A stretch of DNA of 64,000 nt, taken from an uncultured Eubacteriales bacterium. Its GTDB lineage: Bacteria; Bacillota; Clostridia; TANB77; CAG-508. The notes below the pieces were generated by a model. The model worked only from the letters and a program-made list of their open reading frames with translations. It ran no database searches and was not told where the DNA came from. The stretch covers positions 1,102-65,101 of the forward strand of contig CAOKHL010000007.1 in NCBI GenBank assembly GCA_948468315.1. The letters are read 5' to 3'. Position numbers and translations under genes: made by a program. This document shows positions 4,616-57,893 of this stretch, piece after piece. The number at the start of each line of letters is the position of its first letter. Position 1 is the first letter of the stretch.

Positions 4616-7333
4616 ATGAGTGATAAAAAAAGTAAAGAAAAACCAAGCAAAAAAGATAAAAAAATAAGCAATAAAAAAGAAAAAGTAAAATTTTCTAAAA
4701 AACATCCTAAACTAACTATATTCTTAAGATTGTTAATATTATTAATAGTGATATTAGCGGTAATAGGTACAGGAGTAGTTGTAGGAATGTTATATGGAGG
4801 CCTAGGTGATGACTTCGAAATAACAAAAGAAGAATTAGTAATAGGTTCTTCAAATTCAATTATATTAGACAAAGATGGAAATAAGCTAGCAGAACTAAGT
4901 GGAGATGAAAACAGAAAAATAATAAAACTAGACCAAATGCCAAAAAATCTAAAAAATGCATATGTAGCAATAGAAGATGAAAGATTTTATGACCATAGTG
5001 GTGTTGATTTCAAAAGAACAGCAGCTGCTATAGTGCAATATGTATTACATGGAGGAAAATCATCATTTGGAGGAAGTACAATAACACAACAATTAGTAAA
5101 AAACATAACAAAAGATGATGAAAGGTCAGGAAAAGAAGGAATAATAAGAAAAGTAAAAGAATGGGCAAAAGCATATCAAATAGAAAGAATGATATCAAAA
5201 GACCAAATACTTGAATTATATTTAAACATAATATTTGTTGGGGGAAATAATAATCTTGGTGTAGAAGTAGGAGCAGAATATTATTTTAACAAGCCAGCAT
5301 CTGAATTAGATTTAGCAGAATGCGCATTTTTAGCTGGAATTAACAGTTCTCCAAATTCATATAATCCATATGGAGAAAAAGATAATTCGGAAAAAATAAA
5401 AAAGAAAACGAAAACAGTACTTAACAAAATGCGTGAATTAGGAATGATAGAACAATCAGAATATGATGAAGCAAATAAAAAAGTAGATGAAGGATTACAA
5501 TTCCAAAAAACCGAATCAAAAGGATCAATATATTCATATCATACAGATGCGGCAATAGCACAAGTAATAGAAGATATTGCAAAAGAAAAAGATATTTCAA
5601 AAAGTTTAGCTTCTGCATATGTATATAGTAGTGGGCTTACTATTTATTCAACACAAGACACAAATCTTCAATCACAAATGGATGAAATAATGGTAAAAAA
5701 TAGTGGTGAATATACAAGAAATTCGAAAAAAGTAGAAGGAACAACTTCACAATCAGCAATGGTAATAATAGACAATGAAACAGGGTATGTTGTTGGAGTT
5801 GAAGGAGGACTTGGAGAGAAAAAAGAATCAAGAGGATTAAATAGAGCAACACAAAGTACAAGACAAACAGGTTCCTCAATAAAACCATTAACATCTTTAG
5901 TTCCAGGAATAAATGAAGGAACAATTACAACAGCAACAATATATGATGATAGTGAAACAGACTTTAAAATAAAAGGATGGAAACCAAAAGACTATAATGC
6001 ATTTAAAGGACTAATAAGTGTTAGAAGTGCAGTAACAACATCTCAAAATATACCATTTATAAAAATAGTATCAGAACTTACACCAGCTAAATCAGTAGAA
6101 TACTTAGAAAGGATGGGAGTTACATCAATTAATAAAGAAAAAGATGGATTAGCAGCAGTATCAATAGGTGGATTTACAAATGGTATTACTCCACTTGAAA
6201 TGGCAGGGGCATATGCAACAATAGCAAATAAGGGAGTATACAGAAAACCAGTATTTTATACAAAAGTTACAGACCCAGATGGAAATACAGTTCTAGAGTC
6301 AAAACAAAATCAAGAACAAGTAATATCAGAACAAGCAGCATATGTAATAAAAGACATGTTAAAATCAGTTGTACAAAGTGGTACAGCAACATATTGTAAA
6401 ATATCAGGAATGGATGTAGCTGCAAAAACAGGTACAACAAATGATAATTACGATAAATGGTTATGTGGATTTACAAATTATTATACAGCAGCTTGTTGGT
6501 ATGGATTTGACCAAAATGAAGAAATAAAAGGTTCAACAAATGTAGCAGGAAGAATTTGGGAAGCTGTAATGAAAAAAGTACATTCAGGAAAATCAGGTTC
6601 AAGATTTGATAAACCATCAGGAGTAGTATCAGTATCAATTTGTAGAAATTCAGGTAAAAAAGCAACAAGCAAATGTACAGACACATATCAAGAAATATTT
6701 GTAGAAGGAAAAGTACCAGGAGACTGTGATGGTCATGCAAATTCAGCACAAATCTGTAATGAAACAGGACTACGTGCAAATGAATACTGTCCAGAAAAAG
6801 TAACAAAATATTATTCTTATACAGTAGAAAAAGAAAGATTATCATTATGGAATACATCAAGCTCAAGCTCTAAAAATCCACCAGAAGGATATTGTAATGT
6901 ACACAATGCATCAAACTCTGGAAGTCAAAACCAAAATAGTGATAAAGAACCAACAATAACTTTAAATGGTGAAAAAAGTATTACAATAAATGTTGGAGAC
7001 ACATATTTGGAACAAGGAGCAACAGCAAAAGACGAAAAAGATGGAGATATATCAAGTAAAATAGAAATATCGGGAACAGTAAATACATCTAAAGCTGGAA
7101 AATACACTATTAGCTACACTGTAAAAAATTCTAGTGGAAAAACAGCAACTGTAAAAAGAACTATTACAGTAAAAAGTAAAACTCCAGATCCAAAACCAAA
7201 TGAAACACCAGACACAAACACGAATTCAAACACAAATGCAAATGTAAATGTCCCACCAAATGGAACTGGAACAGGAGGTTCGACAGGTGGAAGTACAGAC
7301 ACAACTAGTGGTGGTACAACATCAGAAGAATAG
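4616..7333 (+). CDS. class A penicillin-binding protein (glycosyltransferase plus transpeptidase) with a long C-terminal extension
   Basis: EDERFYDHSGVD and GGSTITQQLVKN (GT51); STRQTGSSIKP and KTGTT (transpeptidase); N-terminal TM segment. Confidence 0.9.
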   Translation: MSDKKSKEKPSKKDKKISNKKEKVKFSKKHPKLTIFLRLLILLIVILAVIGTGVVVGMLYGGLGDDFEITKEELVIGSSNSIILDKDGNKLAELSGDENRKIIKLDQMPKNLKNAYVAIEDERFYDHSGVDFKRTAAAIVQYVLHGGKSSFGGSTITQQLVKNITKDDERSGKEGIIRKVKEWAKAYQIERMISKDQILELYLNIIFVGGNNNLGVEVGAEYYFNKPASELDLAECAFLAGINSSPNSYNPYGEKDNSEKIKKKTKTVLNKMRELGMIEQSEYDEANKKVDEGLQFQKTESKGSIYSYHTDAAIAQVIEDIAKEKDISKSLASAYVYSSGLTIYSTQDTNLQSQMDEIMVKNSGEYTRNSKKVEGTTSQSAMVIIDNETGYVVGVEGGLGEKKESRGLNRATQSTRQTGSSIKPLTSLVPGINEGTITTATIYDDSETDFKIKGWKPKDYNAFKGLISVRSAVTTSQNIPFIKIVSELTPAKSVEYLERMGVTSINKEKDGLAAVSIGGFTNGITPLEMAGAYATIANKGVYRKPVFYTKVTDPDGNTVLESKQNQEQVISEQAAYVIKDMLKSVVQSGTATYCKISGMDVAAKTGTTNDNYDKWLCGFTNYYTAACWYGFDQNEEIKGSTNVAGRIWEAVMKKVHSGKSGSRFDKPSGVVSVSICRNSGKKATSKCTDTYQEIFVEGKVPGDCDGHANSAQICNETGLRANEYCPEKVTKYYSYTVEKERLSLWNTSSSSSKNPPEGYCNVHNASNSGSQNQNSDKEPTITLNGEKSITINVGDTYLEQGATAKDEKDGDISSKIEISGTVNTSKAGKYTISYTVKNSSGKTATVKRTITVKSKTPDPKPNETPDTNTNSNTNANVNVPPNGTGTGGSTGGSTDTTSGGTTSEE

Positions 7334-50605: not shown

Positions 50606-51307
50606 ATGTTACATAAAATGAGATTAAATGAAAGTCCATTTGAAGGAATAAAAAATGGAACAAAAACAATTGAATTTAGATTATATGATGAGAAAAGACA
50701 ACAAATAAAAGTTGGAGATAAAATAGAATTTTCAAAATTACCAGATTTACAAGAAAAGTTGTTAGTGGATGTTATTGAATTATACAGAGAAGATACTTTT
50801 GGGAATTTATTTAGAAAATTATATGCTGATGAAGATGAAATAAATAGAAAAACTAAATCAATGTATCAATACTATTCTCCAGAAAAAGAGAAAGAATATG
50901 GAGTTTTAGGGATAAAGATATCGTTAATTAGCAATGGATTTAGGTATACATATAACAAATTAGTAAGAGATAAAATTCCAGAAAATATAGATAGTGAGTT
51001 TGGCAGAAAAAGCAAATATCGAATTCTTAATGATAGCGAATATCTAACCGAATTAAATAAAAAAGTTTTGGAAGAAGCTAATGAATTTATAGAAGAAAAT
51101 AGTATTGAAGAACTTGGAGATTTAATGGAAGTTATAAATGCAATAATGAAGCTAAAAAGTTATAAAATTGAAGAAGTGTATAAAATTATGAAAGCTAAGG
51201 CTGATAAAAAAGGAACTTTTGATTCTAAAATATATTTAGAATATGTTGATGAAGAGAAAAGAAATATAGAGGAAGAAAAAGAATTAAATAAGAAATTTAG
51301 AAAGTAA
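50606..51307 (+). CDS. ASCH domain fused to a MazG-like nucleoside-triphosphate pyrophosphohydrolase domain
   Basis: N-terminal IKNGTKTIEFRLYDEKRQQIKVGD; C-terminal YNKLVRDKIPENI...EEANEF...EELGDLMEVI. Confidence 0.6.
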   Translation: MLHKMRLNESPFEGIKNGTKTIEFRLYDEKRQQIKVGDKIEFSKLPDLQEKLLVDVIELYREDTFGNLFRKLYADEDEINRKTKSMYQYYSPEKEKEYGVLGIKISLISNGFRYTYNKLVRDKIPENIDSEFGRKSKYRILNDSEYLTELNKKVLEEANEFIEENSIEELGDLMEVINAIMKLKSYKIEEVYKIMKAKADKKGTFDSKIYLEYVDEEKRNIEEEKELNKKFRK

Positions 51308-51335: not shown

Positions 51336-51644
51336 ATGAAGATAATAACATTATGTGGAAGTTTGAAATTTCAAAAAGAAATGATGATAGTTGCAGAAAA
51401 AATGACATTAGAAGGTAATTGTATTCTTACACCTGTTTATCCAACATTAGATAATATTAAAAGAACGGAAGAACAACTAATAAAACTAAAAGAAGCACAT
51501 TTTAAAAGAATAGAATTGTCTGATGCTATATTGGTAATAAATGTAAACAATTATATTGGAAATAGTACAAATATAGAAATAGAGTATGCAAAAAAATTAG
51601 ATAAAGAAATTATTTATTATACTGATATAATAAAAGATGATTAA
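51336..51644 (+). CDS. small nucleoside 2-deoxyribosyltransferase-like-fold protein (tentative)
   Basis: IITLCGSLKF...SDAILVINVNNYIGNSTNIEIEYAKKLDKEI pattern. Confidence 0.35.
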   Translation: MKIITLCGSLKFQKEMMIVAEKMTLEGNCILTPVYPTLDNIKRTEEQLIKLKEAHFKRIELSDAILVINVNNYIGNSTNIEIEYAKKLDKEIIYYTDIIKDD

Positions 51645-51783: not shown

Positions 51784-52480
51784 TTGAAAGAGTTATTTGT
51801 TAAAAATGTAATAAATGAAACTACAAATTTCTTAGACAATAACCAAAGATTAAAATTAAAAGAGATACTAACAGAGATATACAAATATTATAAAATTGAA
51901 AAATTAGAACAAACCCAAAAGCAAGAAACACAAAAGAATAATACAGATATTTTAAATAAGTTTATATCATCTAAAGAAATTGATGGTTGCTAAACAAAAA
52001 CTTTAAATCATTACAAAGAAAATATAAATAAAATGCTTGATGTTGTAGACCTTCCAGTAAATGAGATTACTATTGAAATATTAAGAAACTATTTAGCAGA
52101 TTATAAAAATAATTCAAATGCAAGTATGGTAACTATAGATAATATGAGAAGCGTATTATTAAGTTTCTTTGCTTGGCTGTATTGTTTTAGTTAAAGGTAA
52201 TAGCGAAAGAGAAGTTTATTTCAGTGCTAAAAGTAAAAATATAACAGACTTGGAATATATGGTGTTGAAATATTAATTAGAAATTTTGGAAAGGAGGCTA
52301 ATATAAGCAAAGTACCCCACATAAATTTAGAAGAACAATGGCAACAATGGCTATTGATAAAGGTATGCCAATTGAACAAGTTAAAAATTATTAGGACATA
52401 TAAAAATAGACACTATTATGGAATATGCAATGGTAAATCAAAATAATGTCAAAAATTCACATGGAAAATATATTACATAA
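51784..52480 (+). pseudogene. tyrosine recombinase/integrase remnant (in-frame TAA at 51991, internal deletions, at least two frameshifts)
   Basis: Fragments TKTLNHYKENINKML...ILRNYL, VKGNSEREVYFS, HKFRRTMATMAIDKGMPIEQVKKLLGH...TIMEYA across three frames. Confidence 0.75.
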
Positions 52481-52676
52481 GATAATACTAAATTTAAATG
52501 TTAGAATTAGTGGACAAATAGAGAAAAATGTAATATAATGGAGACGGTTTAAAGAAATTAAAAAAATATGAAATTTAATGTTTTAGAATTAGATGTTAAA
52601 TTAATACTAAAATCATTTATATTATATATTTATCACTATTTTCTAATTTATAAGTTTTTATAAAAGGAGAACAAGA

Positions 52677-53051
52677 ATGTTAAATAAACAAAACGAATTA
52701 TATGAATTATTAAATGAAAATAATAGTTTAAATGAAATTCAAGATTACATAAGAAAAATAATTACAATTAGAGGTTTTTCAGAACAAAGAGTGCAAGATA
52801 AAATGCTACTATTATTTGAAGAAACTGGTGAATTAGCAAAAGCAATAAGAAAAACACTACCTGAAGCTTCAATCGATTATGATAAAATAGAAAATTATAC
52901 AGATATTGAAGAAGAAATTGCAGATGTATTTATTGTACTGGTTTCTATATGCAATAGATTAAATATAAATTTATATGATGCGATGAAGAAAAAAGAAGAA
53001 AAAAATATGAAAAGACAATGGAAAGTAAATAAAGGAGAGAAAAATGAATAA
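52677..53051 (+). CDS. MazG-like nucleotide pyrophosphohydrolase
   Basis: LLFEETGELAKAIRK and EEEIADVFIVL (EExxE / ExxD motifs); RBS aaaggag. Confidence 0.7.
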   Translation: MLNKQNELYELLNENNSLNEIQDYIRKIITIRGFSEQRVQDKMLLLFEETGELAKAIRKTLPEASIDYDKIENYTDIEEEIADVFIVLVSICNRLNINLYDAMKKKEEKNMKRQWKVNKGEKNE

Positions 53052-53547
53052 TAGACAATCATTATATTTATTATGGGCAACTATCCTAAATCAATCTCAA
53101 AGTGCAGATACAGTACTTAAAAATACATTTGAATTGTTTAAAAGATTGAATTTGCTTTCAAATTTTGATAAAGGATATAAAAATCTTGATTATGAAAATA
53201 TAGAAAAATGTCTTACTACAAAACCATGTTTACATAGATTTCCAAGAAATATGTCAATGAATATATGGGATAGTGTTTTTGTGATAAATGAAAAGTATAA
53301 AGGAAATCCAAAAGAAATATTTGTAAAATCTAATGAATGTGATGATGTAAAGAGTAGGTTGATGGAATTTAGAGGAATAGGAGAGCATAAAGCTGATACA
53401 GCAATAATAATTTTAAAAATATATGAAGAAAACAAAGGACTAAATAGTGTATTTGATGCTAAATGCACGGAATTATATAAAACAATAGGACAAGAAATAC
53501 AAATTTTAGATAAGTTGGGAGATGTTGAATTAGATTATGATAGATAA
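53044..53547 (+). CDS. HhH-GPD-superfamily-like protein (DNA-glycosylase-like fold; tentative)
   Basis: WATILNQSQSAD and LMEFRGIGEHKADTAIIIL (helix-hairpin-helix-like); start overlaps the MazG stop by 8 nt. Confidence 0.4.
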   Translation: MNNRQSLYLLWATILNQSQSADTVLKNTFELFKRLNLLSNFDKGYKNLDYENIEKCLTTKPCLHRFPRNMSMNIWDSVFVINEKYKGNPKEIFVKSNECDDVKSRLMEFRGIGEHKADTAIIILKIYEENKGLNSVFDAKCTELYKTIGQEIQILDKLGDVELDYDR

Positions 53548-54460
53548 AGTTTTTTTGGATATAACAAAATTTTGTAATGCGGAATGTAAATATTGTTTTA
53601 CAAATGCAGTACATTATAATAATGAAATTACAAATGAAGAACTAAATATTGATGAAATAGTCATTTTTCTAAATGAATTAGTAAAAAACGAAATATATAA
53701 AGTTTCTATTGGTGGTGGAGAACCATTCTTAAAAAATTTGGGAGAAATCATTAATAGAACAAATGAAAAAATGAAATTTTCAATAACTACAAATGGTTCG
53801 ATGTTAAGTGACGAATTTATAAAATTATTTATAAAAAACAAGAATATAAAAATAACAATCAGTATTGATAGTTTAGATAATGATAAATCTAATATGATAA
53901 GAAAAAATATAGATATTAATAAAGTAATAGAAAATATAAAAAAATTATGTAAGTATGAAGAAATAAGAGAAAGATTATCAATTAGAACTACTATTTCTAC
54001 AATAAATTATAGAGATATTTATGACATTATAAAATTTTGTGAAGACAATAAGATAAAGAATTTAAAAGTAAACTCAACAAACGAATTTGGTAGGGCAAAA
54101 GATAATAAAGAGTTAATACTTCCTTTTAAAGAATTTATGAATTTACTTGAAGAGTTGGTAAATTATTGTGATCAAAATATAAAAAGTGTAAATGTGGAAT
54201 TGCCAGTAGAAAAGTATTTAAAGGTAATTAATAGAAAATGCTTATGTGGGAATACATCGTTATATGTAAATTGGCATGGAGATGTCTATCCATGTGCTTT
54301 TACAGAGGGAGAGCTAAAACTAGGAAATATAAGAGAGAAAAAGATTGATATAATTCTGAAAGAAATTAAAAATTTTACACATGATAATGAATTTTGCTAT
54401 AAATGTCCGATTAATAGATATAAAGATTATGAAAAAATGACAAAGGAAGTTATTAAATGA
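53537..54460 (+). CDS. radical SAM enzyme with a partial SPASM/twitch C-terminal domain
   Basis: CNAECKYC, GGGEPF, CLCGNTSLYVNWHGDVYPC...GNI...CYKC; start overlaps the upstream stop by 11 nt. Confidence 0.8.
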   Translation: MIDKVFLDITKFCNAECKYCFTNAVHYNNEITNEELNIDEIVIFLNELVKNEIYKVSIGGGEPFLKNLGEIINRTNEKMKFSITTNGSMLSDEFIKLFIKNKNIKITISIDSLDNDKSNMIRKNIDINKVIENIKKLCKYEEIRERLSIRTTISTINYRDIYDIIKFCEDNKIKNLKVNSTNEFGRAKDNKELILPFKEFMNLLEELVNYCDQNIKSVNVELPVEKYLKVINRKCLCGNTSLYVNWHGDVYPCAFTEGELKLGNIREKKIDIILKEIKNFTHDNEFCYKCPINRYKDYEKMTKEVIK

Positions 54461-54519
54461 CAATCCTATATCTAAATGATTTCATATAAACTTACTATAT
54501 GATAAATGGGGGTGATACT

Positions 54520-54579
54520 ATGAAAATTGCAAAAAAAACAAAAAAACATATAAAAAAACTATCAAATTTACACATGTAA
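54520..54579 (+). CDS. 19-aa basic peptide MKIAKKTKKHIKKLSNLHM (candidate precursor peptide; speculative)
   Basis: GGGGGTGA (54508-54515) 4 nt before the ATG, a GC island in an AT-rich spacer; located 70 nt upstream of the RRE-bearing radical SAM gene. Confidence 0.3.
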   Translation: MKIAKKTKKHIKKLSNLHM

Positions 54580-54649
54580 TTTATTATTAAATATTTCAAC
54601 CAATGATAAAAAGATATAGGATTAAAATTATATAAAAAAAGGTGCAAAT

Positions 54650-55931
54650 ATGGATAAATTAGTTTTAAAAAAAGAATTCTTTGGTGGAATATTATATGAT
54701 AAAAAATATAAAGAAAATTTATGTATTGACAAAGATACATATCAAATTTTAGAAATGTTAGATTTGAATAATTTAGAGTACACCAAGAATATAGAGTATA
54801 TTAAAGAAAATGTGGAGGAATCGGATGTACTAGAAATTTTTAGAGAGTTAATTGAAAATGGTATTATTTCTTTAAATGTTGAAAGATGTAAGCAATATGA
54901 TATACCAGAAAATTACTTATCGGCTCCATTTAGAGTTTTCTATGATATTACATATAAGTGTAATTTAAGATGTAAACATTGCTTTACAAGTTCTGGTATA
55001 CAAAAGAAAGATGAGTTAACAATTGATGAAAAAATAAAATTGGTAGAACAATTATCTAAATTGGGAGTAGAAAGGGTCTCAATAGCTGGTGGAGAGCCCT
55101 TTGTTTCAGAAGATTTGTACAAGTTTATTGAAAAATGTAATGAAAAGGATATTGATGTTTCAATTTCTACGAATGCTACGTTATTTACTAATGAGGTAAT
55201 TGATAAAATAAATAAATTAAAAATAAAAAATATCACTGTAAGTTTTGATGGACGTTACAGAAAAAAGTATGGATTTTATAAGAGGAAATGGTACATATCA
55301 AAAAACAATTGAAGGACTAAAATTATTAAATGAAAAATACAATAAAGCCTATTCTATAAAGACTACTTTAATGAAAAACAATATTCATGAGATAGAAGAA
55401 CTTATAAACCTTGCAATAAAGTACAATTGCAATACAATAAAATTCAATTGTGTAAGAGAAGATGGTAGAGCTAGTCAAAATAAGAATGATATTGTTTTAT
55501 CACAAGATGAATATATTGAAGTAATAAAAAGTATAGAAGAATTAAGAAAAAAATATGAATCTAAAATAAAAATTAGAGCTCCGTTAAACATATTTGGTTG
55601 TGATGATGATTATGAATTTATACCAGAATTAGGATTTGGTTGTTTTGCTGGTAAAGAAAGTATTTGCATAGATCCGATTGGTAATGTAAAACCGTGTTCT
55701 CATTATCCAAAAGAATTTATTTGTGGAAATGTGAAAAAAGATGAATTAAGATATATATGGAACAATAGTCCTATTTTGAAACAGTTCAGAGAGTTCAAAG
55801 GAAACGATACTTGTAATAATTGTAAAGAATACACCAATTGTAGAGGTGGTTGCAGGTATAGATGTTTCAAAGATGGAAATATTAATGGAATAGATCCATT
55901 TTGTTATTTGAAAAATAATTTAAGTTGTTAA
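54650..55931 (+). CDS. radical SAM/SPASM peptide-maturase-like enzyme with an N-terminal RRE (PqqD-like) domain; +1 frame break near 55253 (GGA-CGT-T)
   Basis: FFGGILYD...TYQILEML, CNLRCKHC, AGGEPF, VSFDG|VTEKSMDFIRGNG, CFAGKESICIDPIGNVKPC...GNV...CNNC...CRGGCRYRC. Confidence 0.8.
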
Positions 55932-55936
55932 AATTG

Positions 55937-55970
55937 AAATCTACATTGATGTAAATTCTAATGTAGATTT
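55937..55970 (+). terminator. rho-independent terminator
   Basis: aaatctacatt / aatgtagattt followed by atttt. Confidence 0.7.
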
Positions 55971-56093
55971 ATTTTAATATATTAATATAAAAACAAACAC
56001 TAAAAGTCATAAAGATATAGAAGATTTTTAGAGATAACCTTACCGACAACTTAGGAGTATGATTATGGATAATATAAAAGAGAGGATAAAAAA

Positions 56094-56177
56094 ATGAAAA
56101 TTGGACTATTACTAGAAGGTGGTGCAATGAGAGGTATATATACAGCAGGAGTTATTGATGTAATAATGGATATATAA
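56094..56177 (+). pseudogene. patatin-like phospholipase N-terminal fragment (27 codons, then decay)
   Basis: MKIGLLLEGGAMRGIYTAGVIDV (GGGxRG-type oxyanion motif) followed by a stop. Confidence 0.5.
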
Positions 56178-56411
56178 AGTACAATAGTCAAGTTGAAAAA
56201 ATCATAGAATTAGAAAAATAAAATATTTGTCATTAGAACATCAAGAATTGTCAATATAAAAGGAATAGAAAAAATTGTGATAAAATACAAGAAATATATG
56301 ATTTAGGCAGAGAAGATATAATAAAATAATTAGAACAATTAAAGGAATTCTTAAATATATAGGGATAGATAATACATGGATTAGTTGAAATAGCTAAAAA
56401 GGAAGTGAAGA

Positions 56412-57020
56412 TTATTCATTTCCTTTTAATATATTCATAATTATACCAATTACTTCATCTTGCATAATATCATAATTAATTTTACTATGTTTATGATAAA
56501 CCACCTCATGACAAAAATTATCAACAATGTTCCAAAGAATATGAACTTTCTCTCTAGGATTTTGAAGGTAAATATTGTTATTTTCTAATAAAACTACTAT
56601 TTTTTCTGTCATTTCGTATTCAGAATCCTTAAAAATTTTAGCAACATCATCATCTAAATGCGACATAGCAAGTAATTCTTCATGAGCTTTTTTAGAAATA
56701 TTATGATTTTCAATAAATTTTTTAATTATATTTTTCAAAAGATTTTCTAAGTTTTTAATCTCAATTTTTTCTGATTCTAATAAACTAATCATTGGGTACA
56801 TGATATGATTAGAATATTGTTTTACACCTTCCATAAATATATCTTTCTTATCATTAAAATACTGATAAATGATACCAACAGATACATCAGCATATTTTGA
56901 TATATCGGGCATAGTAGTATTAAAATATCCTTGTTCGCACATAAGCTCAAAACCTTTTTCTATAATTCTATTTCTTTTTTCAATAGACCTTTTTTGTGTA
57001 GGCATTCTTATTTCTGACAT
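56412..57020 (-). CDS. TetR-family transcriptional regulator
   Basis: RNRIIEKGFELMCEQGYFNTTMPDISKYADVSVGIIYQYF. Confidence 0.85.
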   Translation of the reverse strand: MSEIRMPTQKRSIEKRNRIIEKGFELMCEQGYFNTTMPDISKYADVSVGIIYQYFNDKKDIFMEGVKQYSNHIMYPMISLLESEKIEIKNLENLLKNIIKKFIENHNISKKAHEELLAMSHLDDDVAKIFKDSEYEMTEKIVVLLENNNIYLQNPREKVHILWNIVDNFCHEVVYHKHSKINYDIMQDEVIGIIMNILKGNE

Positions 57021-57072
57021 TTTTATTTACCTCCTCTTTTTAATTATACAATGATAAAAAATAAAAAGCAAG

Positions 57073-57158
57073 AAATATGAAAATATTTTCATATTTTATT
57101 GACTACAAAAGTAAAAAGAAGTATAATAAACAAAAAAATATGAATAAATATTCATATT
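57073..57158 (+). promoter_or_regulatory. promoter TTGACT(57099)-17-TATAAT(57122) bracketed by two palindromic operator candidates sharing AATATGAA
   Basis: aaatatgaaaat/attttcatattt (57073-57096); aatatgaata aa tattcatatt (57137-57158). Confidence 0.6.
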
Positions 57159-57181
57159 ACAAAAACAAGTTAGGGGGAGCT

Positions 57182-57892
57182 ATGGAAAATATAGTAGAAA
57201 TGAAAAATGTAAGTAAAACTTACAAAATAGGAGAGAAAGAGTTTAAAGCATTAGATTGTATAAACCTATCAATCAAAAGAGGAGAGCTTGTGACCATCCT
57301 TGGTCCATCGGGAGCAGGAAAATCAACATTACTTAATTTAATTGGAGGAATGGATAATGTAACATCTGGAGAAATTAAAATAGATGGAGAAGAAATTTCA
57401 AAATATAATGAAAATGAACTTTCAAATTATAGAGCAGAAAATATTGGATTTATTTTTCAATTTTATAATATATTACCTACATTAACAGTATTAGAAAATG
57501 TAGAAATAGTAAAAGATATTGTAAAAAACGCAAAAGATAGTAAGCAGGCAATTAAAGATGTGGGATTAGAAAACCACATGAACAAATTTCCAAACCAATT
57601 ATCTGGAGGAGAACAACAAAGAGTATCAATAGCAAGAGCAATAGCAAAAAATCCAAAATTATTATTATGTGATGAGCCAACAGGAGCATTAGATTCCAAA
57701 ACAGGTGTAGAAGTTTTAAAGTTATTAAAAAAACAATGTGATGGAAACAATGGAGCAAATACAGTAATTATCGTAACACATAACAGCCTATTTGCAGAAA
57801 TAGCAGACACAGTTATAAAAGTTAAAAACGGAAAAATAGAAGAAATAACTTCAAACAAAAATCCTAAAAAGATTGATGAGGTGAAGTGGTAA
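57182..57892 (+). CDS. ABC transporter ATP-binding protein (MacB/FtsE-like)
   Basis: GPSGAGKST, LSGGEQQRVSIARA, LLLCDEPTGALD; RBS gggggag. Confidence 0.9.
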   Translation: MENIVEMKNVSKTYKIGEKEFKALDCINLSIKRGELVTILGPSGAGKSTLLNLIGGMDNVTSGEIKIDGEEISKYNENELSNYRAENIGFIFQFYNILPTLTVLENVEIVKDIVKNAKDSKQAIKDVGLENHMNKFPNQLSGGEQQRVSIARAIAKNPKLLLCDEPTGALDSKTGVEVLKLLKKQCDGNNGANTVIIVTHNSLFAEIADTVIKVKNGKIEEITSNKNPKKIDEVKW

Positions 57893-57893
57893 G

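Follow-up and report, generated by a model that had tools for sequence, protein, structure and literature searches.

What does a bacterium make with an operon in which a putative maturation pair for a peptide that is made on the ribosome and modified after translation (RiPP) stands directly behind genes that look made for handling nucleotides? The question is raised by contig CAOKHL010000007.1 of an uncultured Eubacteriales bacterium, of which we analysed a stretch of 64,000 nucleotides (the window). Within it lie a MazG-family gene, a gene for a protein of 167 amino acids (aa), a gene for a radical S-adenosylmethionine (SAM) enzyme (rSAM1), a very short open reading frame (ORF) and a second radical SAM gene with a SPASM domain and a RiPP recognition element, or RRE (rSAM2). 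We conclude that this five-gene cassette of gut Clostridia is real, rare and undescribed. We also favour, at a probability of about 0.58, the view that the region is one operon for a RiPP-like pathway, yielding a modified peptide or a small molecule derived from a peptide, with accessory nucleotide chemistry. The parts are as follows.

52677-53051, + strand: MazG ORF, 124 aa
53044-53547, + strand: 167-aa ORF with an HhH-GPD-like fold, overlapping the MazG ORF by 8 nt (ATGAATAA)
53537-54460, + strand: rSAM1 ORF, radical SAM, 307 aa, overlapping the 167-aa ORF by 11 nt (ATGATAGATAA)
54520-54579, + strand: precursor-like peptide gene, 19 aa (MKIAKKTKKHIKKLSNLHM), 59 nt past rSAM1, with the Shine-Dalgarno sequence GGGGGTGAT
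54650-55312, + strand: rSAM2 N-terminal ORF, 220 aa, with the RRE (about residues 1-70), CX3CX2C and GGE motifs, up to the FDG motif
55245/55248-55931, + strand: rSAM2 C-terminal ORF, with the remaining barrel and the full seven-Cys SPASM domain

A sequence-only reading of the window had already given the coordinates of the first three genes, their two overlaps and, after a further 59 nt, a 19-aa ORF preceded by a Shine-Dalgarno sequence, and the ORF listing and the raw sequence reproduce all of them on the + strand. Its identification of the MazG gene, of helix-hairpin-helix/GPD features in the 167-aa protein, of a partial SPASM (twitch) domain in rSAM1 and of a decayed integrase upstream also held, on evidence given below. 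It had described rSAM2 as one RRE-bearing radical SAM/SPASM enzyme; the radical SAM domain, the SPASM domain and the RRE fold were recovered, but the single ORF was not, because the gene is two overlapping ORFs in different frames, separated by a 1-nt insertion that the reading had missed.

A rare cassette that stays together

Homologues of the 167-aa protein are few: they form 90 clusters in 5.8 billion proteins and occupy ten loci among 185,579 GTDB species, each locus in an uncultured member of the gut Clostridia. The MazG gene, the 167-aa protein, the twitch-type rSAM1, the peptide and the RRE-bearing rSAM/SPASM enzyme recur in about 13 diverged lineages with unrelated flanks, and at each locus that is informative MazG, the 167-aa protein, rSAM1 and rSAM2 are neighbours, even where the identity of the 167-aa protein has fallen to 26-45%. 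In neighbourhoods where that identity is 73%, 56%, 48% and 45% the flanks are completely different and the order is the same, namely MazG, a 160-aa protein and a 305-308-aa radical SAM protein, followed across a gap of some 180 nt by an intact rSAM/SPASM protein of 419-433 aa. The cassette was also found in five further GTDB species. Homologues of rSAM1 at 37-47% identity lie in the same set of genes in Eubacterium ventriosum (L032), whose version is indexed in 796 blocks of a public assembly collection, in a second metagenomic lineage (L035) and in Clostridiaceae bacterium M8S5 (L034, CP118523); the 158- and 165-aa proteins at deep loci are members of the 167-aa family (hhalign probability 99.6 and 99.2). 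M8S5 has its genes arranged as rSAM2, kinase, rSAM1, HhH protein, MazG, and because the same genes are together in this shuffled order, the linkage survives rearrangement. The co-occurrence in other genomes that the sequence-only reading had proposed to look for is thus what the neighbourhoods contain, with unrelated flanks and one rearranged order.

That reading had not recognised the combination as a described system, and neither did we: it matched nothing among curated families, defence models and Rfam families, and full-text searching of the literature turned up no paper in which these components are combined. A known anti-phage defence system was rejected, since PADLOC-DB 2.0 recognised no defined system and gave only generic pVip matches to the radical SAM cores, with none to MazG or the 167-aa protein. 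A phage origin was likewise rejected, as PHROGs held nothing for the 167-aa protein and otherwise only generic MazG and radical SAM matches. Ribosomal peptides modified by rSAM/SPASM enzymes are known as a kind; not known are the family to which this precursor belongs, its obligatory partnership with MazG and an HhH-GPD-fold protein, the kinase link and the split maturase.

The short peptide and the RNA helix around it

In 12 of the 13 cassette lineages a peptide ORF lies between rSAM1 and rSAM2, behind GGAGG or GGGGG and ending in ...LHM-stop. The conserved peptides have 12-21 aa and, when aligned from the right, give the consensus [KR]-[IM]-K-x-L-x-[NED]-L-H-M-stop:

window: MKIAKKTKKHIKKLSNLHM
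L023: MNNAKITKKHIKKLSNLHM
L011: MKKAQTTKKHIKVLSNLHM
L014, L026, L027, L029: MKKNNKK(V/T/I)(V/I)KKHIKKLKNLHM
L028: MKTNKKVHKKHIKKLKNLHM
L017: MKKKSVNPNKKHMKKLKNLHM
L019: MYKIKPLDELHM
L032 (E. ventriosum): MKRRIKKLSELHM
L035: MKLRKAKKRIKFLGDLHM

The codons vary synonymously (Leu as TTA, TTG, CTC or CTA, His as CAC or CAT), which indicates that selection acts on the peptide as a protein, and from this pattern we conclude that the small ORF is a gene. The window peptide is the only short ORF in the 64 kb that ends HM-stop. With E allowed to reach 10, the peptides of 21 and 26 aa still matched no precursor model in NCBIfam. None of the LHM peptides contains Cys, Trp or Tyr, and a single Phe occurs in the L035 type only; this composition excludes thioether, Lys-Trp, Glu-Tyr and similar known cross-links, and chemistry of the sacti-, ranthi-, streptide- and triceptide types was rejected for the same reason.

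In M8S5 the sole candidate upstream of rSAM2 (L034, about 4990-5046) reads MLMLKRRSESLLMELKWW-stop and lacks a convincing Shine-Dalgarno sequence; should it be a true gene, there would be a second core type, ...ELKWW as against ...ELHM.

The peptide gene of the window is enclosed by a perfect 12-nt inverted repeat:

54462..54473, + strand: 5' arm of the bracketing helix, AATCCTATATCT
54612..54623, + strand: 3' arm of the bracketing helix, AGATATAGGATT

The helix closes the minimum free energy structure (z = -3.8), and a long-range inverted repeat encloses the peptide ORF and its Shine-Dalgarno sequence in nine of ten cassettes (for instance L019 9040-9047/9161-9168, L035 7920-7946/8054-8080 and L017 7246-7256/7395-7405). 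Three kinds of arm, unrelated to each other, occur (AATCCTATATCT, TTGCCTGCA and a 27-bp GTTGCATCGATGAACCCGTATCTGACA), with L017 carrying a compensated variant; the same geometry built from unrelated sequences, together with the compensation in L017, argues for a conserved RNA helix. It sequesters neither Shine-Dalgarno sequence and perhaps processes or stabilises a separate peptide transcript. The E. ventriosum locus has no bracketing helix and has instead a terminator-like hairpin after the peptide. A riboswitch, or any known RNA, was rejected, as a comparison of the window region with Rfam, taken to E = 1, gave no match, nor did eight relatives yield one at the gathering threshold.

Two radical SAM enzymes below the equivalog cut-offs

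The N-terminal ORF of rSAM2 matches Pfam Radical_SAM (74.7 bits) and contains CNLRCKHC (CX3CX2C) and AGGEPF (GGE). The C-terminal ORF has the full CX12GX4C...CX2CX5CX3C...C set and matches Pfam SPASM at 48.6 bits and TIGR04085 at 46.8 bits against a cut-off of 27. In an AlphaFold2 model of the N-terminal half, the elements E4-9, E12-17, E22-27, H28-37, H44-54 and H57-69, with a predicted local distance difference test score (pLDDT) of 78-90, have the topology of an RRE, and the best Foldseek matches of this half are SuiB (2.8e-8), CteB and SkfB. An intact rSAM2 orthologue aligns to SuiB from residue 2 and also to the N-terminal regions of StsB and QhpD.

Which known enzyme is rSAM2 closest to? 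For intact orthologues the best curated family is MftC (TIGR03962), with 185 and 180 bits over model positions 7-332 of 339 at a cut-off of 265, and the two halves in the window reach 87 and 84 bits. NirJ2 comes next, followed by StsB/PqqE or WgkB depending on the orthologue. The best solved relative of an intact orthologue is PqqE (6c8v, 77.7 bits); the PqqE family model (TIGR02109, cut-off 381) gives 158 bits, and no pqq partners occur in the four neighbourhoods at 73-45% identity.

rSAM1 matches Pfam Radical_SAM (78 bits) and SPASM (39 bits). Besides C13, C17 and C20 it has only four invariant Cys residues in its C-terminal part (C235, C253, C287 and C290), and accordingly one auxiliary cluster of the twitch, or partial SPASM, kind; since the protein begins directly at CX3CX2C, it has no RRE. 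Its best NCBIfam matches, PapB, the W-cofactor maturase, WgkB and MoaA, reach 80-86 bits and fall well short of their cut-offs; for the E. ventriosum orthologue MoaA ranks first, and it too falls well short. Neither radical SAM enzyme reaches any NCBIfam equivalog cut-off, including that of the anaerobic sulfatase maturases, which the sequence-only reading had named as an example of a well-characterised family (TIGR03942, cut-off 349; rSAM1 53 bits, C-terminal half of rSAM2 41 bits).

MazG and the glycosylase-fold protein

A MazG gene was found in every cassette. That of the window scores 37.7 bits against Pfam MazG (cut-off 22) and 28 against MazG-like (cut-off 27), and has the acidic metal-binding motifs EExxE and ExxD (FEETGELAKA, EEEIADVF). 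In three deep lineages the cassette also has one or two genes of the Thymidylate_kin/dNK family, 6-9 nt after rSAM2 or between the two radical SAM genes, and the window, L011 and L017 have ASCH-pyrophosphatase or NUDIX genes next to the cassette. The MazG gene and the gene of the 167-aa protein are translationally coupled to rSAM1.

The 167-aa protein has no Pfam match at E up to 0.1, hence none to HhH-GPD, and its family profile gave no match in a sequence-only search of the PDB at E up to 10; against NCBIfam TIGR03252 ("HhH-GPD-type base excision DNA repair protein", cut-off 136.5) it scores 42.1 bits. Its AlphaFold2 model (pLDDT 84.7) has ten helices, and nearly all of the 50 PDB matches listed by Foldseek are HhH-GPD glycosylases or glycosylase-like, led by EndoIII, NTHL1, MagIII, MBD4, MutY and OGG1 with probability of about 1 and TM-scores of 0.47-0.55. 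Rank 40 of this list is QNG1, an enzyme whose fold is that of a glycosylase but whose substrate is a free nucleotide and not DNA. Invariant in the family are NQSQ (16-19), K60/P61, M70/N73, GIGxHK (111-116), C141 and E151, with HRFP (64-67) nearly so. Like the HhH-GPD superfamily (EndoIII, MutY, MagIII, MBD4) and QNG1/DUF2419, the model shows an all-helical two-lobe fold with a helix-hairpin-helix, in which GIGxHKA aligns with GVGRKTA. Unlike those proteins it has only 167 aa, lacks a Pfam match, a conserved catalytic Asp and the Fe-S loop or Cys cluster, has His at the position of the nucleophile Lys120 of EndoIII, and is encoded in a biosynthetic operon. The model supports membership of the HhH-GPD fold, but not catalytic equivalence.

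A proposed pathway

How might these parts work together? In the RiPP-like pathway that we favour, the RRE of rSAM2 would bind the K-I-K-x-L part of the peptide and rSAM2 would carry out radical chemistry on the invariant C-terminal Leu-His-Met, not necessarily the reaction of MftC. Action at this end is suggested because the invariance of the last residues parallels MftC, which acts on the C-terminal Val-Tyr of MftA. rSAM1 would perform a second radical step, and MazG, the glycosylase-fold protein and, in relatives, the thymidylate-kinase-like enzymes would handle a nucleotide, which may be a co-substrate or building block, or else a toxic by-product or intermediate. The sequence-only reading had seen a RiPP maturation pair in the second half of the cluster and nucleotide or DNA-base chemistry in the first; the former is strengthened by the synonymous conservation of the small ORF and the RRE topology of rSAM2, and the nucleotide part of the latter by the in-operon thymidylate-kinase-like genes of deeper relatives.

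Mycofactocin biosynthesis (MftA, the RRE protein MftB, MftC) is alike in its very short precursor with invariant residues at the extreme C-terminus, in the RRE-dependent rSAM/SPASM enzyme encoded beside it (MftC being the top curated match of intact rSAM2) and in being a small, cofactor-like cassette without an obvious exporter. It differs in that rSAM2 falls under the 265-bit MftC cut-off, that the peptide ends Leu-His-Met and not Gly-Val-Tyr, that the RRE is fused to rSAM2 and not separate, that no partner families MftB/D/E/F occur in any cassette, and that a second radical SAM enzyme, MazG and the HhH-GPD-fold protein are added. SuiB (streptide), CteB and SkfB (sactipeptides) and PqqE share the arrangement of RRE, radical SAM barrel and seven-Cys SPASM domain, are the best structural and sequence matches of rSAM2 and have the precursor gene directly upstream; unlike theirs, the cassette peptide is free of Cys, Trp and Tyr, while rSAM2 falls short of every curated equivalog cut-off and in the window is split. 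An analogy can also be drawn with peptidyl-nucleotides of the microcin C type, where the precursor ORF is tiny and its C-terminal residue invariant, an RNA structure sets the peptide transcript apart and the operon includes nucleotide enzymes, whereas the cassette has no ThiF/MccB-like adenylyltransferase, a C-terminal Met in place of Asn, and two radical SAM enzymes instead.

Several points weigh against the pathway as we have drawn it. Its support consists of domains, fold and co-occurrence, beyond which the chemistry is a proposal. The RRE was assigned by fold and not by a sequence model, Pfam PqqD giving no match to the N-terminus of rSAM2, and the model of that half has a low-confidence linker and a predicted TM-score of only 0.45. 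The Foldseek E-values of the 167-aa model are weak (7e-3 or above), although the matches are almost uniform in family, and no invariant or near-invariant Asp occurs among 24 family members at residues 117-150, which would hold the catalytic position (the D of GPD, some 20 residues past the hairpin) and are the least confident segment of the model; for these two reasons the protein may be a binding protein instead of a glycosylase. The conserved core contains no peptidase or exporter, and within the 15 kb examined at M8S5 no LHM peptide occurs. Another possible role for a conserved short ORF with an invariant C-terminus, bracketed as it is by RNA structure, is that of a regulatory (arrest) peptide. 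Decay has occurred in close relatives: L022 has a truncated rSAM1, and in L030 and L031 nothing is left but MazG and the initial 22-28 codons of the gene that follows, which marks the system as accessory and dispensable. Finally, for StsB, top full-length similarity to MftC did not predict the chemistry (PMC10288494).

There is a bolder version of the same pathway, which we put forward tentatively: the product might be a covalent hybrid of the peptide and a nucleobase or nucleotide, or a new peptide-templated cofactor, and the split radical SAM/SPASM enzyme of the window lineage might work as two polypeptides. Both radical SAM enzymes would then join or co-process the C-terminal His-Met with a nucleotide-derived moiety; its supply or trimming would fall to the kinases and MazG, and its release to the glycosylase-fold protein. 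A parallel is offered by FO synthase, whose pair of radical SAM domains links tyrosine to a pyrimidine derived from GTP.

Could the peptide be secondary?

Among the alternatives to a RiPP-like pathway, the one that survives best, and that we still consider unlikely, makes the modification of a free nucleotide the core of the system, with a viperin- or MoaA-like antimetabolite, signal or defence molecule as its product. Kinases would supply a nucleoside triphosphate (NTP), rSAM1 and perhaps rSAM2 would alter it, MazG and the glycosylase-fold protein would trim or detoxify, and the small ORF would encode a leader or arrest peptide with a regulatory role, or else a carrier of lesser importance. 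The constant presence of MazG and the frequent adjacency of NUDIX or ASCH genes fit such a scheme, as does QNG1 among the fold matches of the 167-aa protein, and the conserved RNA helix around the peptide ORF is what is often seen with attenuator leaders, except that it sequesters neither Shine-Dalgarno sequence. The thymidylate-kinase-like genes of the three deep lineages, adjoining a radical SAM gene, recall the viperin-CMPK2 and pVip-kinase pairs and their NTP-centred logic, and rSAM1 and the N-terminal half of rSAM2 do match pVip weakly (77.6 and 74.6 bits in PADLOC) and MoaA (80-91 bits). Such scores are generic for the radical SAM core and far under the cut-offs, however: about 70 bits for both enzymes against the 180 of the viperin model NF038283, and 80 against 284 for MoaA. 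Viperins have no SPASM or twitch Cys cluster, RRE or peptide, and the cassette of the window has no kinase. Both radical SAM enzymes carry SPASM or twitch domains and have the peptide maturases SkfB, CteB, SuiB and PqqE as their best PDB matches, the RRE-type peptide-binding domain of rSAM2 would be superfluous in a nucleotide enzyme, and PADLOC recognises no system.

The flanks of the operon

Outside the five genes the region holds the following features.

51784..52480, + strand: decayed tyrosine recombinase with frameshifts, stops and an internal deletion, its fragments in three frames (by three-frame translation)
52511..52539, + strand: promoter-like site TGGACA-17-TATAAT upstream of the operon, by consensus match only
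55937..55976, + strand: AT-rich terminator-like hairpin after the operon, AAATCTACATT ... AATGTAGATTT followed by a T-rich tail, read directly from the sequence

The promoter-like site is the best sigma-70-type match of the region (11 of 12 positions), and an equivalent TTGACA/TATAAT is kept in the close relatives L023 and L011; the leader upstream of the operon is conserved among close relatives only. The hairpin was not reported by a terminator scan, which requires G+C. Stitched together, the recombinase fragments match Pfam Phage_int_SAM_4 at 36.7 bits and Phage_integrase at 29.2 bits, the latter at its C-terminal end only; the remnant is not kept with the cassette in the neighbourhoods at 73, 56, 48 and 45% identity of the 167-aa protein.

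Directly downstream lies a remnant of a patatin-like phospholipase (56096-56180, on to about 56330), recognised by eye from a GGxRG motif, with MKIGLLLEGGAMRGIYTAGVIDVIMDI-stop followed by out-of-frame fragments, so that together with the recombinase remnant upstream the cassette is flanked on both sides by pseudogene debris. Beyond it, at 56412-60263, are a divergent TetR-family regulator (- strand) and a MacB/FtsX-type ABC transporter pair (+ strand). We rejected these as members of the system: they adjoin the cassette only in contigs of this species (L001-L010) and not in other lineages, and for this reason they are probably unrelated to it.

An ASCH-domain gene is loosely linked to the cassette, at 50606-51307 in the window (about 1.4 kb upstream) and at 10943-11842 in L011. 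The two ASCH domains are 80% identical, yet they are fused to different pyrophosphatase modules: in L011, where the gene is directly downstream of rSAM2, the partner is a NUDIX domain, and in the window it is an all-alpha region of the KLVRDKIPE... type that by eye has the look of a PRA-PH/MazG-like pyrophosphohydrolase, with no Pfam match. Two NUDIX genes lie upstream of the L017 cassette. Between the ASCH fusion and the integrase remnant of the window, a 102-aa ORF (51336-51644) has sub-threshold similarity to nucleoside 2-deoxyribosyltransferase and DUF4406 (17 and 15 bits) and is a possible further nucleotide-handling gene near the cassette.

The extended cassettes of the deep lineages adjoin other genes of secondary-metabolite type (L032 10190-14873; L035 116-1951 and 10648-14897; L034 9718-13409), among them NTP_transf_5, AMP-binding with PP-binding, ACPS, BtrH_N, ABC exporters and an Asn-synthase-like gene, and also a separate set of PqqD and an Rce1-like protein with its own small peptide. 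Some of these neighbours may share the pathway, or the loci may be no more than biosynthetic islands.

A maturase in two pieces

Is the cassette of the window, with its interrupted rSAM2, still alive? Alignment with eight intact rSAM2 orthologues places the interruption at a single base:

55253 (approximately), + strand: single-base insertion (C) splitting rSAM2, GATGGA[C]GTTACAGAA, where intact orthologues have FDGGTEKSMDFIRG

The last 20 codons of the N-terminal ORF are consequently an out-of-frame tail. The C-terminal ORF has 228 aa from the 55245 start and 227 aa from the ATG at 55248, and Prodigal-type calls begin at the ATG at 55269. We rejected a sequencing error, since the same two-ORF split was seen in nine of ten independent metagenome contigs that encode an identical 167-aa protein, since L023, a GTDB metagenome-assembled genome whose 167-aa protein is 80% identical, carries the same inserted C, and since a protein search with the N-terminal half found at least 12 distinct split N-half ORFs in public data (202-220 aa, 82-100% identity). 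In L023 the N-terminal ORF stops at once (FDGR-TAA), overlapping the ATG of the C-terminal ORF (ATGGACGGTAA) as at the other coupled junctions of the operon. Slippage by -1 on A-AAA-AAG was rejected, because restoring the frame requires +1, and transcriptional slippage on the A6 run was rejected as a general mechanism, because L023 has GAAGAAAG there.

The ratio of non-synonymous to synonymous substitution (dN/dS, Nei-Gojobori) between the window and L023 is 0.119 for the N-terminal and 0.085 for the C-terminal half of rSAM2 at a dS of about 0.74, and neither half has gained a stop despite this divergence. The uninterrupted genes give 0.066 (MazG), 0.164 (167-aa protein) and 0.212 (rSAM1). Because the ratios of both halves are low, like those of the uninterrupted genes, and on the assumption that both lineages inherited the insertion from their common ancestor, we read the split as a gene fission that is still expressed and not as a dead pseudogene, and because both pieces are kept by purifying selection, the cassette of the window is probably still functional.

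The opposite view, that in this genome the cassette is a decaying, non-functional remnant and that the frameshifted rSAM2 and the integrase and patatin debris form one degenerating island, seems to us improbable. It can point to the interruption itself, to an N-terminal ORF that in the window type runs 62 nt past the ATG of the C-terminal ORF with no Shine-Dalgarno sequence ahead of the latter, to the debris on both sides, and to the deletions in L022, L030 and L031 and the fused truncations P0138 and P0139. It has to contend with the open, constrained halves shared with L023 across so much synonymous divergence, with the coupled stop and start in L023, with the persistence of the many split variants, and with the intact state of the peptide and of all the remaining genes.

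Least probable is a DNA base-modification or repair module, in which an HhH-GPD glycosylase would act on DNA, the radical SAM enzymes would modify DNA bases and MazG, whose family is known for deoxynucleoside triphosphate (dNTP) house-cleaning, would sanitise the dNTP pool: DNA glycosylases and glycosylase-like proteins make up nearly all the listed structural neighbours at the top for the 167-aa protein, its weak TIGR03252 match points the same way and the cassette adjoins an integrase remnant, but that remnant is not conserved beside the cassette in other genomes, the protein lacks a conserved catalytic Asp, a Pfam HhH-GPD match and an Fe-S Cys cluster, there is no methyltransferase, transglycosylase, restriction or other DNA-targeting partner and no phage context (no PHROG for the 167-aa protein), the conserved peptide and the RRE are left unexplained, and the likeness to DNA-hypermodification or defence modules that the sequence-only reading had guardedly drawn gained no support from PADLOC or from the family alignment.

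Implications

What would it mean if the RiPP-like pathway with accessory nucleotide chemistry is as we propose? There would be a new precursor family (...L-H-M-COOH) and a new cluster type in common human-gut Clostridia, joining RiPP machinery, an NTP pyrophosphatase, a glycosylase fold and a nucleotide kinase in a combination that we found in no curated model or paper. With five genes in about 3.3 kb, the cassette would be a compact target for new radical SAM chemistry on His or Met, and possibly for peptide-nucleotide hybrids of the gut. A split rSAM2 under purifying selection would, in addition, be a natural experiment in dividing the barrel, with the SAM-binding half on one polypeptide and the SPASM half on the other.

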